Origin: Candidatus Latescibacterota bacterium
Lineage (GTDB): Bacteria; Latescibacterota; UBA2968
Assembly: GCA_965205975.1 (NCBI GenBank)
Contig: OZ242195.1
Span: forward strand, 3,296,001 to 3,360,000
Length of the DNA: 64,000 bases
Reading direction: 5' to 3'
The notes under the pieces are model-generated. The model searched no databases. It worked only from the letters and a program-made list of their open reading frames with translations, and was not told where the DNA came from. Both the position numbers and the translations under genes were made by a program. Below, piece by piece: positions 44,372 to 62,129 of this stretch (the stretch's first letter is position 1; each line of letters begins with the position of its first letter).

Positions 44372-45913
44372 TCACATCCGAGCCTTCACATCATAAGGCG
44401 TCTGCTTAAAAATAATGCCCTCGCGCTCAAGTGTTTGTGGCATCAAACGCGACTGCTCGCCATAAACCGTCAGCGGTCCATCGGCGTCTGGATGCGCTTT
44501 AGAGATTTCCTCGCGGATATGCACCAATGTTGCACGGGTCAAAACATTGCCACCACCTGGTCGCTTATCTCCAAGAATACCATTGTATAACAACGCATAA
44601 GCGCGCCCATCGTGCAAACCGAGAAATGGAGAATCGCCCTTCCCTTTCCACGGATACCCGGTCTCGCTAAAATAAACATGCGCGGCCAGAACGGAAAATC
44701 GAATATCTGACCGAATCTGCCCATCCTCATCAAACACAGGCGGACCGAGGCGATAGAAGCGAAACCCACCACCACCCTGCCAATTGACACTCTTTGAAAT
44801 ACCACCCTGCTCGCCCTCAATCACCTTCCGCAGACGCGGAACACAATGACTGACCGCGTGCTCACCCATCTCAATACCAATGTACCGCCGCCCCATCTTA
44901 TGCGCCACCGCCGCCGTAGTGCCCGATCCGAGGAAAGAATCGAGAACGAGATCGCCGGGGTCGGTGGCGATGTGAAGGATGCGTTGAATGAGGCGTTCGG
45001 GTTTTGGGGTGTCAAACGTGTTGGCTACGCCAAAAAGTATATTTACCTCTTTCTTGGCCTCCTGATTATGGCCAACCTCTTCATTTGGCCACCATGTCCA
45101 AGATTGTCTGCCTCTTGCTTCCGCTAGATAATTTTTCCTACGAGGAACGCCCTTTCCATCCCTCCCAAACCAGAATCTTCCTTCCTTCACTTGGTTTAAA
45201 AAAACGTCTTCCACATTTTTCCAACAAGACCCCTCTGGTGGATAGTATTCAGCACCACCTGGCGTTACGATTTTATACATTTGATTTGGCCTGTAACCCT
45301 GTGCACTAAAATCCCTCGAAACCCATGGACCACGCGGATCATTATCGGGATTTTTGTATTCCTTTTTCTGGTTTTCGTTTAGCGGGAGTAAGTTTGCTTT
45401 TTCGCGGAATAGGGATACATTTTTTGAAGAAACAAGAACATTTTCGTGCCCATCTCCAAGAACTGCTCGAAAATCGGGTGAAGTTCTCTTTTGCCAAACT
45501 ACATTTGCCACGAAATTTCTTCTTCCGAATACCTCATCCATAATGACTTTCAGATAATGCACCTCATTGTCATCAATCGACACCCAAATCGATCCATCCT
45601 CTGATAGTAACTCGCGCAGAAGTTCAAGGCGCGGCCACATCATCGCCAGCCACTTGCTGTGTTCGAGATTATCGTCGTAGTGCTCGAAAGCCGAGCGCGT
45701 GTTATACGGCGGATCAATGTAAATGCACTTCACCTGTCCAGAGTAGAACGGCAGCAATGCCTTGAGCGCGTCAAGATTGTCGCCCTGGATGAGCATATTG
45801 TCGGCATCCGTATCACCAGAGGAAAGGTCGGATGCTTCCTCCAGCAAGCGATACGGCACGCGAGTGGCGGCGCGGATATTTTCGTCTCGTGTTAGCCAGT
45901 GTAGAATCGGCAT
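44372..45913 (-). CDS. mod: Type III R-M DNA methyltransferase Mod
   Basis: IQGDNL, YIDPPYNT, TPKPERLI, DSFLGSGTT. Confidence 0.92.
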   Translation of the reverse strand: MPILHWLTRDENIRAATRVPYRLLEEASDLSSGDTDADNMLIQGDNLDALKALLPFYSGQVKCIYIDPPYNTRSAFEHYDDNLEHSKWLAMMWPRLELLRELLSEDGSIWVSIDDNEVHYLKVIMDEVFGRRNFVANVVWQKRTSPDFRAVLGDGHENVLVSSKNVSLFREKANLLPLNENQKKEYKNPDNDPRGPWVSRDFSAQGYRPNQMYKIVTPGGAEYYPPEGSCWKNVEDVFLNQVKEGRFWFGRDGKGVPRRKNYLAEARGRQSWTWWPNEEVGHNQEAKKEVNILFGVANTFDTPKPERLIQRILHIATDPGDLVLDSFLGSGTTAAVAHKMGRRYIGIEMGEHAVSHCVPRLRKVIEGEQGGISKSVNWQGGGGFRFYRLGPPVFDEDGQIRSDIRFSVLAAHVYFSETGYPWKGKGDSPFLGLHDGRAYALLYNGILGDKRPGGGNVLTRATLVHIREEISKAHPDADGPLTVYGEQSRLMPQTLEREGIIFKQTPYDVKARM

Positions 45914-47576
45914 TAACTATCCTTCTCGTATTCGGCAATCCATTGTTCGGCTTCTTCTTTAGTATATGCTTCGGTAATGACCTTGTGGTTTTCCGGCAGT
46001 TCATTGCTTGCTGGTTTGTCAATATGCGGTTCCAACCTCTCTCGTAAATCATTTGCTTTTTTTTCAGATAAGCCTTCTGCGAGGGAATCCACATCTTCTT
46101 TGGTCAATCCACCTGCGAAAATCGCGCCGGATAGATCAGATTTTTTGCCAATCTGGTTCCAGATACGATTTCTGAAAGACATAGAATGAGAACTCCCGAT
46201 TCCGACCCCCTGTAGGCGCGTTCCATGAAGGTCGGCACCTTGTAGGTGTACTTCATCAAGAATAGCACATTGTAGGCGCGCCCTACGAAGATCAGCACAT
46301 TGCAGGCATGTGTCGCGAAGGACAGCACATTGCAGGTGTGCTTCAATCAACAATGTCCCTTGCAGGTATGCCATAGTCAGATTGGCCTCTTGAAGATGTG
46401 CGCCATCCAATTCTGCTCCTTGCAGGCGTGCCCTGCCAAGATCAGCTTCTTGCAGGCGTGCCCTGCCAAGATCAGCTTCTTGCAGGTGTGCCTCGCGAAG
46501 ATCAGCCCCTTGCAGGTGTGCCTCGCGAAGATCAGCCCCTTGCAGGTGTGCCTCGCGAAGATCAGCCCCTTGCAACTGCGCTCCTCTAAGATCAGCCCCT
46601 TGCAACTGCGCTCCTCTAAGATTAGCCCCTTGCAACTGTGCATTCGAAAGCTTGGCCCTTTGCAGATGTGACCAGCTAAGATTAGCTTTTTGCAGATATG
46701 CCCCAGTCAGAATGGCCTTTTCTAAACGCGCTTCCTGCAAATCTGCCCCGTTCAGCCAACTCCCCTGTAAGTTGATATCACAATCTTTGAAAACCTCGTG
46801 ATTCTGGATGAACAGCAATGTCAACAGGCTTTGTACTTCTTCCGAGGGTTTTGATTCATGTTTTTCTGTCATAACTAATTTCCTTCCGTCATCTGGCGGA
46901 TATGGAGACAGAGCATGTCCAGTGCCGTCTGACGCAATTCTTTGGTGTCTTCTTTGGCATCTTTTGCCAGTTGGAAAAGTTCGTAGGCTCCACCCAGGCG
47001 CACGATGTCTTTTTCGTCCCCCAAGTGTTCAATGGCATTTTTCAGGCGTTCCTGTCGCAACCCTTGCTCGGTGTGCGAGACAGTCTCTTCCATCGCCTTG
47101 GCGCGTCTGTGGGAAGCCAATGCTTGCAGGGCGATCAGTATGCCGCCCATCCCAATTCCCAAAAATTTCAGAACTTCATATTTTCGATTTTCACTTCCAG
47201 ATACCCCAAAAATTTTGAAACTCCACGAGGGTTTGTCGGGGACCATGACAACTACAAAAACTATCGCCAACACAATTAACGAGACGACAAGAATGCGATC
47301 AAGATTGTCAATGAGAAATTGCCACAGCTTTGAAAAGATACTCATTGCAGATTTCCAAGATAACAAGAGGACTATCAAGATACCACCCATGCCGATTCCC
47401 AGAAACGTCAGAATTTTGTTTTTGGCGTTTAAGCCTATAAGTTCAGAAACACAATTTTTGACACAGTCGAAACTCATGACGCCTATAAAAATTATCACCA
47501 TAAAGACAAGCAGGCCGACAAGAATGCGGTCAAGATTGTTGATGAGAAAATCCCACAGTTTAGAAAAGAATTTCAT
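45913..47576 (-). pseudogene. Membrane-anchored pentapeptide-repeat protein split by a frameshift (ORFs 46875-47576 and 45913-46872)
   Basis: TM part with ERLKNAIEHLG...RLGGAY...LCLHIR ends at TAG; KPSEEVQSLL plus A(D/N)L repeats resume 2 nt later in another frame. Confidence 0.7.
46420..46636. repeat. 30-bp tandem repeats (two pentapeptides each)
   Basis: TGCAGGCGTGCCCTGCCAAGATCAGCTTCT x2, TGCAGGTGTGCCTCGCGAAGATCAGCCCCT x3, TGCAACTGCGCTCCTCTAAGAT.AGCCCCT x2. Confidence 0.9.
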
Positions 47577-53255: not shown

Positions 53256-53355
53256 CCTTCACATTTTTGCCGTTTGAAACGGCAAACTACATCACACATC
53301 ACAGCCCCTCTTTTTCATCTGGGTTTATCTGCGTCATCTGCGGATCGCACTTCAC

Positions 53356-55650
53356 CTACTCATTCACAATCCGCGCCACCCAAATACTAATCTCGTACAA
53401 AACGATGAGCGGCATAGCCATCAAAAGCTGAGACAGAGGATCGGGCGGGGTCAAAATGGCGGCGAGTATAAACCCGATCAAAAGCGCATAACGCCGTCCT
53501 TTTCGCATCCGATCGCGTGTTGCAATCCCCATCTTAGCCAGAAAAAACGTCAACACGGGCAACTCAAACACCAGGCCAAAAGCCACCAGAAGGCGCAGCA
53601 CAAAACCGATATATTCCCCAATATCAAACTGCGGCTTCACAATCGTATCTTCAGCCATACCAACAAAAAACTTCATCGCCAGTGGGATAACCAGCCAGTA
53701 CGCCAAAATAGCACCAACGACAAAACACACAGTGGCCGAACCAATCACAAACGTCACAAACCGCCGCTCGCTGGCAAATAGACCGGGCGCGACAAACATC
53801 CAGACCTGAAAAATCAAAAACGGCAGCGCCAGAATCCCCCCACCCACCAGCGCGATCTGAAGCTTGACCATAAACATGCCCATCGGTCTTAAAGTCTGCA
53901 ATATCAGTTCATCTTCCAGTTCGCGGGTAGGATGGAGCAGCACAGCCAAAATCTCATTGACAAAAATCCCGCAAAAAATCGCGCCTATAATAATCGCGGC
54001 CAAACTCTTCAAAATGCGCCACCGCAACTCCTCCAGATGATCGAGAAAAGGCATCGGCTTGCCTTCATCGGGCAGATCTTCTTCATCGCGGTCTGGCATA
54101 ATCGCCGGCACCGTACCCTCAGGCGGTGCAACATCCTCCTCCACCTCTCGCGGTCGCCGAATAGCCGACACCGCCAACCCCATCAACGCGATCACGCCGC
54201 ACAACTGAGAAAACAAATCGCCAAACCGCATATAAAGCGTCTGCTCATCGCGCGGTGCAATCGTCCCGGCCACAACAGCCTCTTCAAATAAACCCGTCTT
54301 TTGCGCTTGCCGCCCGTAGGGATCGACAAACATCGACACACCCGTATTGGCACAACGCACAACCCAACGCCTGTTTTCAACTGCTCTGAAAGTTGCAATA
54401 TCCGCGTGTTGATACGGTGCTGCCGTGCGCCCATACCACCCATCATTGGTAATCACCACCAAAAACTCGGCACCCCGAACCATCATATCGCGCGCAAGCC
54501 AGGGAAACACCGAATCAAAACAAATCATCCCGGAAAACTTTCCACCCGGCACCTCAAAAACCGTAAGCGCAGTCCCACTCTCAAAATCGCCGCTGATATA
54601 CCCCCCGCCGCTCCACTGAAAATCGCGCAAAAATCCGAGCAATTTGGGAAAAGGTGCCCGCTCTCCAAACGGCACCACCTTCACCTTGTCGTAATGCGGC
54701 AAATCGCCCCCGCCAGGCTCAAACAAAAAAGAAGAATTGTAAAGACGATCCCGCGCCGCAGCCTCAAAGCGATTCGCTCCCATATACAGATAAACGCCCA
54801 GCGAATCGACCAGCGCCTGCACCCGCGCCTGATACGCCTGATGCGACGCGCCTTCACTTTTCAAACGCGCGGGCAAAGCCGCCTCTGACCACACAACCAA
54901 TCGCGCCCCCGTCTCCGCGGCCTGAATCGTCAAAGGTTTCAGCTTGTCAAAATTGTGATCAAAACCCCAGTACGACTTCTCAACAGGCGGCACATTTTGC
55001 TGCACAATAGCGACCTTCAAATCGCCCTCAGCAACCGGCTCTGCCATGCGCCACAAACCAAATCCCGCTGGCAGTGCAAAAGCCAGAACCAGAGCACCAA
55101 CCATCAAACCGCGCCGCGCACTTTCCAATGCCTTAAACGCAATCAAATTGACCACCACCACCCAAAAAGACACCCCGTAAACCCCGGTCGCCTCTGCAAT
55201 CTGAATCAAAGGCAAATAATCCACCTGGGTATGCCCGAGCAACATCCACGGAAAACCCATATCGCCCAGCGTATTAAAATACTCAAACCCCACCCACAAA
55301 AAAGGCACCATCCACAACCCCAGCCTGCCAACGCGCGCCATTGCAAACGACCACAACCACACAAACAGCCCCCGAAAAAGCGACATATACAAAATTGCCC
55401 CCGCCATACCCGGGGGGGTAATCCACGCAATCCAATAAACACTCGCACCGTAAAAAACCACACCCTGCAAAAAACCCGCGCCAAGAGCCACGCGCCCACG
55501 CAGATTTTCGGCAACGGGAATCAGAGGCAACAAACTGATACAGGCCAAAAAACCGAGCGGCAAAGGGGGAAATGCCGCTGCCATCAGCAAACCCGACAAA
55601 ATCGGATATCCGATCACCAACTTCCAACCCCACGTATTGTCCTGCGCCAT
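53356..55650 (-). CDS. Fusion of apolipoprotein N-acyltransferase (Lnt) and twin-arginine translocase subunit TatC
   Basis: Lnt: GFPW, WSE, YDKVKVVPFGE, ICFD, TNDGW, RAVENRR, ANTG; acidic linker; TatC: MPFLDHLEELR, FELP, TPPD, LYEISI. Confidence 0.9.
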   Translation of the reverse strand: MAQDNTWGWKLVIGYPILSGLLMAAAFPPLPLGFLACISLLPLIPVAENLRGRVALGAGFLQGVVFYGASVYWIAWITPPGMAGAILYMSLFRGLFVWLWSFAMARVGRLGLWMVPFLWVGFEYFNTLGDMGFPWMLLGHTQVDYLPLIQIAEATGVYGVSFWVVVVNLIAFKALESARRGLMVGALVLAFALPAGFGLWRMAEPVAEGDLKVAIVQQNVPPVEKSYWGFDHNFDKLKPLTIQAAETGARLVVWSEAALPARLKSEGASHQAYQARVQALVDSLGVYLYMGANRFEAAARDRLYNSSFLFEPGGGDLPHYDKVKVVPFGERAPFPKLLGFLRDFQWSGGGYISGDFESGTALTVFEVPGGKFSGMICFDSVFPWLARDMMVRGAEFLVVITNDGWYGRTAAPYQHADIATFRAVENRRWVVRCANTGVSMFVDPYGRQAQKTGLFEEAVVAGTIAPRDEQTLYMRFGDLFSQLCGVIALMGLAVSAIRRPREVEEDVAPPEGTVPAIMPDRDEEDLPDEGKPMPFLDHLEELRWRILKSLAAIIIGAIFCGIFVNEILAVLLHPTRELEDELILQTLRPMGMFMVKLQIALVGGGILALPFLIFQVWMFVAPGLFASERRFVTFVIGSATVCFVVGAILAYWLVIPLAMKFFVGMAEDTIVKPQFDIGEYIGFVLRLLVAFGLVFELPVLTFFLAKMGIATRDRMRKGRRYALLIGFILAAILTPPDPLSQLLMAMPLIVLYEISIWVARIVNE

Positions 55651-55775
55651 ACCATCACCTGTGTTCATCTGTGGTTAAAAATCCCTATTGCAAAAAACAC
55701 AAAGATTACGGAATATAAAGGCGGGTCAAATCCCTGTCAATTGCCGTCCCAAAAAACAAACCCGGTCTATAACCC

Positions 55776-60409: not shown

Positions 60410-62129
60410 CCCGACTAATTCATGAATAGTAATATTGCGGAGTGTATGTCAGTATAATTGGTTAAGGCAACCTCAAGATGTGGTTTTCAGGAGTCTTGCC
60501 ATCTGGCTGGTCAGTTTTTCGTGTTGTGAAGGGGTCAAAAATTTTCTGTGCGTCAGCCCCAGGCAGTCAAAAGGATAGACCTCTGCCCTTGCCCGTCCTG
60601 CCAGTGGTCGGGTTGGTATTTTAGTAGCCTGTTAAGCGCGTAAAGTTGTGCTGTCTGCCCCCCATCTTCCCTTTCTTTACTTGTGCTAAAGTCCTGCTCT
60701 TGCCAGATTGCTGATGATTTTATGATATAGATGTTGCAATGGAAAGGACGCTGGCAGATGGAAGGTGATCTTCGTTTTCAACTCACAGACGCGCCCTGCG
60801 ACTTTGAGGAAACGGTTTTGTAGGGTATTGACCTGTGCATTTACCCATGTTGTGCCTTTCAGCCCGATGTGTGCTAAGGTGTGGAGTAAGACATAGGCGG
60901 CAGAATGGAGGAAGAGGCGGAACACATTGGCAGTAAAGGTATGACAGGACGTGCGGTCTGAGTGGAGAAAGGTCTTGTGATTTTTAATGAAGTTTTCCAT
61001 CTGTCCTCGGGCGCAATAGACCTGCTGGTAGATAAAGGAGGCTCTTGAACTTTCGAGATTGGTCACGACAAAGCGTGTATTTTGACCTTTCTCATTCCTT
61101 TCTGCCTTACATAAGATGCGCCTCTTAACAGCCCAAGTCTTGGCCTGATAATCAAATTGGGTAAAAAGGCGCACGGGCTTGCCGGTTTGTTCATAAAGGC
61201 TTTGGGCTTGATCCATTAGGGGTGCTGACAGGTCTAAAAGTCGGGCATTCGCACTTTGTCCGAGGACAAAATACAGGTCGCTATCCGCACAGAAGTCTTG
61301 GACTTGGGGCGTTGAAAAGTGGGCATCCCCGCGCAAGATGATCGCCACCCGGGGCCAAGCGGCACGCAGATGTGCGACCAACCGCTTGAGAATGGCAACA
61401 ATCTGTTGACCTGTTGGACGCACACCGGGACGCAAAATCGTGGTGATCAGCTTACCGGTTTGCCCCTCATAAATATGCAAGGGCTGGTAGCAATAGTCCC
61501 CCAAATACCCATTGAATAAGGCCAACTGCTGCGTCCCATAAACCGTATCTTGTGTATCGTCGATATCTAAGATGATTGACGAAGGTGGCCTATGATAAGA
61601 CGCAATAAAAGCATCGACAAAGGCACGCGCAATCCGATACAAGTCCTTTTTGCTCATCTGATTCTCAAAACGGCTCATCGTGGGTTGACTGCTCAAGTCT
61701 TGTCCGGTCAAAGGCAAGCGCCCACACGCCGCCTTCAAGCCCGGATCGCTCTTTAAGGCATCACAATCATTGGCATCTTCATACCCACAGGCGATTTGAA
61801 ACACGCGCTGACGGACCAACTCGGACACAGAATGCGATACATAACTCTTATGCCGACGGTCTGTAATCGCCTCACTGATGCGTGATAAAATGCCCGCCTT
61901 GGCCTCTACTTCTCGCAGCAATAAGACGCCGCTATCGCTGGTGAGTATGCTGCCATCGAAGGCGAGGTTGAGCCGTTTGCCGAAAATGCTTGCCAAAGGA
62001 ACCTTGCTATGATTATCTTGTGTACTCACGGTAGTTTCTCCCAAGTCCATTGTTTAAAGGTTATGTCGCTAACCAAATATAATACAATGACTTGAATAGG
62101 GAAACTACCTTTTTTATGAATTATCCGGG
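60410..62129 (-). mobile_element. IS1380-family insertion sequence
   Basis: Terminal IRs CCCGACTAATTCAT / CCCGGATAATTCAT (12/14); 4-bp TTAG duplication at 60406-60409 and 62130-62133. Confidence 0.9.
60686..62050 (-). CDS. IS1380-family DDE transposase
   Basis: TSDSG.LL, GYEDANDCD, SQPTMSRFEN, LDIDDT, RGDAHF, YCARGQMENFIK. Confidence 0.92.
   Translation of the reverse strand: MDLGETTVSTQDNHSKVPLASIFGKRLNLAFDGSILTSDSGVLLLREVEAKAGILSRISEAITDRRHKSYVSHSVSELVRQRVFQIACGYEDANDCDALKSDPGLKAACGRLPLTGQDLSSQPTMSRFENQMSKKDLYRIARAFVDAFIASYHRPPSSIILDIDDTQDTVYGTQQLALFNGYLGDYCYQPLHIYEGQTGKLITTILRPGVRPTGQQIVAILKRLVAHLRAAWPRVAIILRGDAHFSTPQVQDFCADSDLYFVLGQSANARLLDLSAPLMDQAQSLYEQTGKPVRLFTQFDYQAKTWAVKRRILCKAERNEKGQNTRFVVTNLESSRASFIYQQVYCARGQMENFIKNHKTFLHSDRTSCHTFTANVFRLFLHSAAYVLLHTLAHIGLKGTTWVNAQVNTLQNRFLKVAGRVCELKTKITFHLPASFPLQHLYHKIISNLARAGL

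Follow-up and report, generated by a model that had tools for sequence, protein, structure and literature searches.

A single reading frame joins apolipoprotein N-acyltransferase and TatC in Candidatus Latescibacterota

The locus described here raises two questions: whether apolipoprotein N-acyltransferase (Lnt) and TatC are truly encoded as one protein and, if they are, whether the join couples Tat export to lipoprotein maturation. The locus lies in a 64,000-nucleotide stretch of DNA (the window) from a bacterium whose genome is one 5.56-Mb contig (98% complete) and whose relatives, at 76%–98% identity, are Candidatus Latescibacterota. An initial annotation of the window, made from the sequence alone, read both halves in one frame and proposed that the two processes are physically coupled.

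Table 1. Features of the fused gene in window coordinates; the last three rows are given in the coordinates of other loci
Feature	Position	Strand	Basis or remark
lnt-tatC fusion gene (P0001)	53356..55668	-	ORF calling; start 55668 or 55650
Lnt N-terminal membrane domain (Pfam LNT_N, residues 25-175)	55144..55596	-	Pfam
Lnt nitrilase-fold catalytic domain (residues 218-473)	54250..55017	-	Pfam, alignment, fold; periplasmic by homology (PMC8689077)
Catalytic Glu262 (= E. coli Glu267)	54883..54885	-	alignment; kept in 61/61 fused and 35/35 split Lnt
Catalytic Lys328 (= E. coli Lys335)	54685..54687	-	alignment to E. coli Lnt
Catalytic Cys383 (= E. coli Cys387)	54520..54522	-	alignment to E. coli Lnt
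Last Lnt membrane helix (485-503), then basic RRPR	54160..54216	-	model helix; hydropathy peak 482-500
Acidic Pro-rich linker (residues 504-538), predicted disordered	54055..54159	-	pLDDT <50 at 510-534
Met524, optional internal ATG in linker	54097..54099	-	not conserved; extra linker Met in 26/63 fused loci
TatC domain (residues 539-770), six membrane helices	53359..54054	-	Pfam, NCBIfam; fold match
Sigma-70-like promoter match, 11/12	55712..55740	-	just 5' of fused gene; consensus match only
Lnt-alpha/beta-hydrolase fusion	L195:583-2793	+	similar long tails in L189, L198
Lnt-alpha/beta-hydrolase fusion	L196:508-2775	+	similar long tails in L189, L198
Lnt-alpha/beta-hydrolase fusion	L197:393-2723	-	similar long tails in L189, L198

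The fused gene encodes 770 amino acids with no internal stop. The 5' end first assigned to it corresponds to the second in-frame ATG (Met7), and either of the two starts in Table 1 may be used. Both halves score well over the NCBIfam cut-offs (lnt, 320 bits against 132.9; tatC, 214.7 bits against 132.7), and Pfam places LNT_N at residues 25–175, CN_hydrolase at 218–473, and TatC at 543–753, the architecture that the annotation had suggested searching for. The junction lies in one open frame in all 53 sampled genomes of the same order (three copies are incomplete at the 5' end, owing to one frameshift and two contig breaks), and contigs from four of four sequencing runs (four studies, one of which may have used the source sample) cross the linker without a net frameshift. 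Neither the same-order genomes nor these contigs have a stop or net frameshift in the linker; the single TAG flagged in the order (genome G023) is 5' of the fused frame, not inside it. Relatives with split genes do occur, so one could imagine that an assembly or sequencing artefact deleted a stop between two genes. Given 63 fused loci in four clades, the 53 open same-order frames, and the in-frame contigs of every run, the chance of this is negligible and we consider it ruled out. The fusion is real.

Contigs X15 and X16, from RNA libraries, also cross the linker, although contigs cannot show a single transcript, its start, or its level. Over the 5.2 kb scanned, there were three promoter-like sites against 3.4 expected, that is, chance frequency, and none was inside the fused gene; terminator matches around the gene were also at chance frequency. 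An AlphaFold2 model built with 112 fused relatives (mean pLDDT 84.7) comprises two folded units and a low-confidence stretch at residues 510–534.

The annotation called the Lnt half complete, and this held on closer inspection. Its WSE, YDK, and ICF motifs contain Glu262, Lys328, and Cys383, a triad present in 61 of 61 fused Lnt, and align with WPE, YNK, and ICY of the solved E. coli Lnt. Glu336, the equivalent of Glu343, one of the further residues reported as required in E. coli, is also kept, and the model matches solved Lnt chains with target TM-scores of 0.76–0.84. E. coli Lnt is reported to cross the membrane with eight helices and to place its catalytic domain in the periplasm (PMC8689077). 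Two other E. coli residues, Tyr388 and Glu389, have been reported as required (PMC3850990), and these are replaced by Phe384 and Asp385 in the window's protein. The former position is Phe also in 35 of 35 split relatives, and the latter is Asp in 39 of 61 fused Lnt; the position of Trp237, a further residue reported as required in E. coli, aligned inconsistently. These accessory residues (W237, Y388, and E389) aside, the protein is a member of the Lnt family by the sequence tests applied. It is the only lnt over the cut-off, and a search of the genome for an Lnb-type enzyme found none. The intact triad and its standing as the sole candidate suggest a probably active Lnt.

The TatC half is likewise complete, as annotated, with a Pfam match to positions 1–208 of 208 and a six-helix fold (target-normalised TM-score 0.91 to PDB 4B4A and 4HTS). 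The signal-peptide site residues E547, F625, and E634 are invariant in 63 of 63 fused loci; they were mapped by motif and spacing to E15, F94, and E103 (numbering of F94 and E103 from PMC13673990 and of E15 from PMC13323110). The domain therefore passes as a member of the TatC family on the tests that were run, and it is the only tatC in the genome. No tatA or tatB is adjacent, as had been remarked. The single TatA-family gene (one match to PF02416) is at genome position 5,016,545, ∼1.67 Mb from the fusion, and no TatB exceeds the cut-off in the genome (TIGR01410 matches only the tatA gene, below cut-off), so that the gene defining a three-component TatABC system was not found. A single TatA-family match is the usual state in the class, seen in 112 of the 117 genomes having any match (121 searched). 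Ten Tat signal matches in the genome exceed the TIGR01409 cut-off. Solved Tat cores are reported to be TatC trimers, TatA can occupy the TatB site, and minimal TatAC systems are known (PMC13323110). Here, TatC and the single TatA would constitute such a minimal translocase.

Because no TatB was found over the cut-off, and because most genomes have a single TatA-family match and lnt is immediately 5' of tatC, one may ask if the last Lnt helix replaces TatB. It runs from out to in, as TatB does, precedes TatC as in TatB-TatC fusions, and would occupy the TatB site of the TatC trimer. However, stand-alone Lnt ordinarily has this helix, which lines up with the last helix of E. coli Lnt, the model has no amphipathic helix after it, and TatAC systems in which TatA can take the TatB site already exist (PMC13323110). 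We consider the replacement very improbable.

Some variation in Tat genes was seen along the way. TatC of family f3 (L042–L078), whether fused or not, has an insertion of ∼40–90 residues after the first helix that recalls the periplasmic inserts in M. xanthus and N. salsuginis TatC. In f3, tatA shares the strand of lnt-tatC and precedes it by ∼5–13 kb, but it is far away in the window's order. tatA (L008, L171–L177) occurs in a conserved cluster of protease, pssA, small membrane gene, tatA, and gatA.

Checking relatives, as the annotation advised, was informative. No split form was found among the 53 same-order genomes, whereas the sister families mix fused and separate genes. From the two other families of the class, 68 genomes were sampled and loci from 63 compared: 23 are fused, 35 are split on the same strand (33 adjacent, two with 1.4–1.9 kb between the genes), and five are unlinked within the stretch examined. 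The pair persists while its upstream and downstream neighbours vary between families. Across the class, lnt and tatC are fused in 62 of 103 loci. Of 13 recurring neighbour pairs, no other was ever seen fused, but these 12 (each in at least three genomes) were seen only three to 27 times and make a thin control. In other classes, lnt is absent from the flanks (some of them short) of 20 of 20 tatC loci. A profile of 26 fused proteins searched against 1.84 billion cluster representatives gave two full-length proteins among the best 150 matches, both from the window's group; a distant fusion should have scored within those 150, and none was found outside the class. Among 404 plasmid records matched by tblastn, none covers 80% of the fusion protein.

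The number of Lnt genes differs between the groups. LNT_N has a single match in 51 of 53 same-order genomes (the two exceptions are a broken or contig-split copy), and a second, unlinked Lnt is present in 54 of 68 sister-family genomes, so fusion is found whether or not a genome has a second Lnt. In five of 16 loci of this second Lnt (partly chosen for long frames), a C-terminal alpha/beta-hydrolase domain with GHSxGG is attached (Table 1). Speculatively, this lipase-like domain could act on the lyso-lipid by-product.

How often did the genes join? The fused state covers the whole order and genus g12 and, in part, genera g18 and g20. Concatenated Lnt and TatC trees (FastTree, 81 rows; IQ-TREE, 35 rows) each require four state changes, and so does a TatC tree of 51 rows, including 12 unfused outgroup rows that no single branch separates from the rest. 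Before tree building, 15 near-identical rows from the same genus were removed, the careful trees being those of 35 and 51 chosen rows, and the concatenated set excludes genomes G078 and G084, each with a frameshifted half. (Frameshifts confined to single genomes affect lnt of L027, in the 5' part in G019, and of L132 in G078, and tatC of L054 in G084; they may be assembly errors or real lesions.) Grouping all fused loci in a single clade is rejected by an AU test (p 6e-49). With the unfused outgroups, the shortest reading is four gains, and three gains with two losses cost one step more. Thus, the fusion likely arose at least four times on the sequence record compared.

The split loci indicate what preceded it. 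In 32 of 35, the first candidate start of tatC either overlaps the lnt stop or is no more than 10 nt from it, including 13 ATGA overlaps. This suggests that the precursor was a class-wide, translationally coupled lnt-tatC pair like that of the split relatives, in which loss of the intervening stop codon would have produced a single gene.

The linker is acidic and proline rich, as first described (12 Asp plus Glu and seven Pro in 35 residues). It ranges from 18 to 115 aa in the 63 fused loci, and among 112 fused proteins it has no invariant column and no conserved cleavage motif. Because free TatC in split relatives already carries a linker-like, mostly acidic tail of 14–73 aa, the linker is most likely TatC's own N-terminal tail.

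Fused genes may nevertheless yield separate products, if TatC were started at Met524 or Met539 or if the linker were cut after membrane insertion. Met539 is an ATG in 62 of 63 fused loci, Aquifex TatC starts at the same motif, and a disordered cytoplasmic linker would be accessible to proteases. The Shine-Dalgarno (SD) duplex energies before Met524 and Met539, −4.9 and −3.7, are not nil. This organism does use SD signals, given that 64% of 458 clear, unambiguous starts reach −4 kcal/mol or better compared with 23% of 6000 internal Met (medians −5.7 and −2.4). The annotation's view that no strong SD precedes the linker methionines was therefore roughly right, except that the signals are weak to moderate rather than absent. 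Against separate products, the SD before the MPFLDH Met of TatC has a median of −3.7 in fused loci, with 30% at −4 or better, near background. All 35 split tatC genes also have Met539, with a first start candidate 14–73 codons upstream of it, which makes it part of the TatC motif. Extra linker methionines are present in fewer than half of the fused loci (26 of 63), and neither a conserved cleavage motif nor a promoter-like match inside the gene was found. Taken together, separate products seem improbable, and a single chain is likely the main product.

The neighbours of the gene (divergent bioF; downstream, an MBL-fold hydrolase and a Na/Ca exchanger) show no obvious connection with Lnt or TatC. 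Immediately past the stop codon, at 53296–53358, is a short dispersed repeat with 26 blastn hits in the genome including itself (20 of at least 25 nt) and very high contig depth. Elsewhere in the window are a DNA methyltransferase-like gene with upstream pentapeptide-repeat and membrane-protein genes (44372–47576, minus strand; translation read by eye) and an IS1380-like transposase, so labelled from reading its translation (60686–62050, plus strand).

If Lnt is fused to TatC, which lipoproteins would it serve? Lnt catalyses the third step of lipoprotein maturation, after Lgt and LspA (PMC8689077). Lgt, LspA, and LolA are over cut-off in the genome and unlinked to the fusion (lgt and lspA are 0.15 and 2.1 Mb away); two tandem LolC/E-like genes, which score below the NCBIfam cut-off, are also unlinked. 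A crude, home-made signal-pattern test on 4324 home-made gene calls returned a Sec-type lipobox in 142 cases, and 13 of the 25 of these that were sampled look real by eye; a further 26 calls had only a Tat signal, and six had both a Tat signal and a lipobox. Two of these six look false by eye, and two plausible ones were added by eye. After inspection, about six plausible Tat lipoproteins are predicted, compared with roughly 70–140 Sec ones. That some Tat lipoproteins are predicted favours the coupling idea of the initial annotation; their small number beside the Sec ones weighs against it. The predicted Tat lipoproteins are two MsrP, DctP, a PaoA-like Fe-S subunit, an ActB/QrcBC-like protein, and a Rieske-like protein, and they include proteins carrying redox cofactors. 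The lipobox-like sequence of the ActB-like protein suggests that it may be lipid anchored. ActB is reported to have a Tat signal, but it is ActE that is named as a lipoprotein (PMC5928083).

On balance, we favour the plainer interpretation, that repeated stop-codon loss in a translationally coupled pair left two tethered but independent activities. The C-terminus of E. coli Lnt and the N-terminus of TatC are both cytoplasmic, so the two could be joined without a change of topology. The last, eighth Lnt helix would end in the cytoplasm, which the RRPR after it fits, and TatC would begin there, for a total of 14 membrane helices. If the chain is uncut, a TatC trimer would bear up to three tethered Lnt. 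The fused Lnt would N-acylate all lipoproteins once Lgt and LspA have acted, and most of these would be Sec exported; being the only Lnt, it must mainly serve Sec lipoproteins and cannot be Tat specific. Direct hand-over is unlikely because the steps of Lgt and LspA separate export from that of Lnt, and the marks of substrate channelling (consecutive steps, a constrained linker) are missing, given that Lgt and LspA intervene and that the linker, at 18–115 aa, is unconserved. The likely effect of the join would be fixed 1:1 synthesis and co-location, not substrate hand-over. Both partners are fused elsewhere to unrelated proteins, which is consistent with tethering alone, as are the transport-competent TatB-TatC fusions of E. 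coli and the separable halves of mycobacterial Lnt-Ppm1. Other observations fit tethering less well: only lnt-tatC is fused of 13 pairs, no split form was seen in the order, the pair persists beside changing neighbours, no TatB was found, lnt is directly before tatC, cofactor-bearing Tat lipoproteins are predicted, and the Tyr388 and Glu389 equivalents are changed in an Lnt whose activity is itself a deduction. Complex prediction for Lnt (12–508) and TatC (534–770) gave a score of 0.00 and a mark of 0.32, no answer either way. Of the original proposal, then, physical tethering stands if the chain is uncut, and functional coupling is not established.

The opposite possibility is that coupling was selected: Lnt would be a partner of the Tat core, and fusion would be favoured to finish folded, cofactor-loaded lipoproteins at the exit, before misassembly or degradation. 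Four independent gains, the fusion of this pair only among 13, the tight spacing of lnt stop and tatC start in 32 of 35 split loci, the confinement of adjacency to the class (20 of 20 tatC loci of other classes have no lnt in the flanks compared), and the approximately six predicted Tat lipoproteins argue for it, and the second Lnt in 54 of 68 sister-family genomes would permit a division of labour between Tat and Sec there. Yet Lgt and LspA, both unlinked, must act first, the window's order has no Lnt besides the fused one, the linker is unconstrained in length and sequence, and fusion is found with and without a second Lnt. We therefore regard selected coupling as rather doubtful. Similarly tentative is its structural form, in which Lnt would be a built-in subunit of a TatB-less Tat translocase, three per TatC trimer, finishing folded lipoproteins as they are exported.

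The annotation was aware of no published Lnt-TatC fusion, and we found none in full-text literature searches, with subscription papers and supplements outside their reach; the fusion is apparently unpublished. A review of September 2026 discusses, as a natural TatC fusion, the haloarchaeal 14-helix TatCt, and the strings “Lnt,” “acyltransferase,” and “Latesci” do not occur in it (PMC13673990). TatCt resembles the window's protein in being a natural fusion of TatC but differs in that its partner is a Tat component and its signal-binding residues are lost, whereas the window's TatC keeps them. TatB-TatC fusions from an E. coli mutant screen are reported to support transport (PMC5102672), so there too TatC accepts an N-terminal membrane partner, although TatB is a Tat component. 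In layout, the closest known case is mycobacterial Lnt-Ppm1. There, the C-terminus of Lnt continues into the product of the following gene in some species, as in M. tuberculosis (Rv2051c) and BCG (BCG_2070c), and the two are separate in others, as in M. smegmatis (MSMEG_3860/3859); the halves are separable, in that Ppm remains active when the Lnt domain is lost (PMC3850990). The mycobacterial partner is a polyprenol-phosphate mannose synthase, whereas in the present case Lnt has been joined to a translocase core, probably on at least four occasions. Compared with solved Lnt (E. coli, PDB 5N6H/5VRG; P. aeruginosa, 5N6M) and TIGR00546, the window's protein has the same domain layout, triad, and E336 but continues into TatC after the last helix and has Phe and Asp for Tyr388 and Glu389. 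Compared with TatC of Aquifex (4B4A/4HTS) and E. coli (9DZZ) and with TIGR00945, it has the same six-helix fold and signal-site residues but bears a 500-residue membrane enzyme N-terminally, with tatA unlinked and no TatB found.

Other fusions of either partner were encountered. In other organisms, NadA is attached to the TatC C-terminus via a long acidic linker (P0117, P0120). Lnt fusions (P0146, P0149, P0186, P0196, P0261) include Lnt-SNase (staphylococcal nuclease), Lnt-LEA_2, and PAP2-Lnt (with PAP2 N-terminal), and two have ∼330 extra C-terminal residues with no Pfam family.

There is a practical consequence for genome analysis. The fusion is named only “apolipoprotein N-acyltransferase” in the sources, so genomes can look as if they lack tatC. 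Genera g18 and g20 contain fused and split sister species and thus supply natural test pairs. Under the plain reading, a natural TatC core bears a large unrelated membrane enzyme, which shows the tolerance of the Tat core. Should Lnt instead be a built-in part of the translocase, the class-wide 1:1 coupling and the four fusions would be the genomic trace of an Lnt-Tat link, and lipoprotein maturation would for the first time be physically linked to a protein translocase. If such coupling is real, the fusion would offer a handle on whether lipoprotein-maturing enzymes organise physically with the translocases that deliver their substrates.
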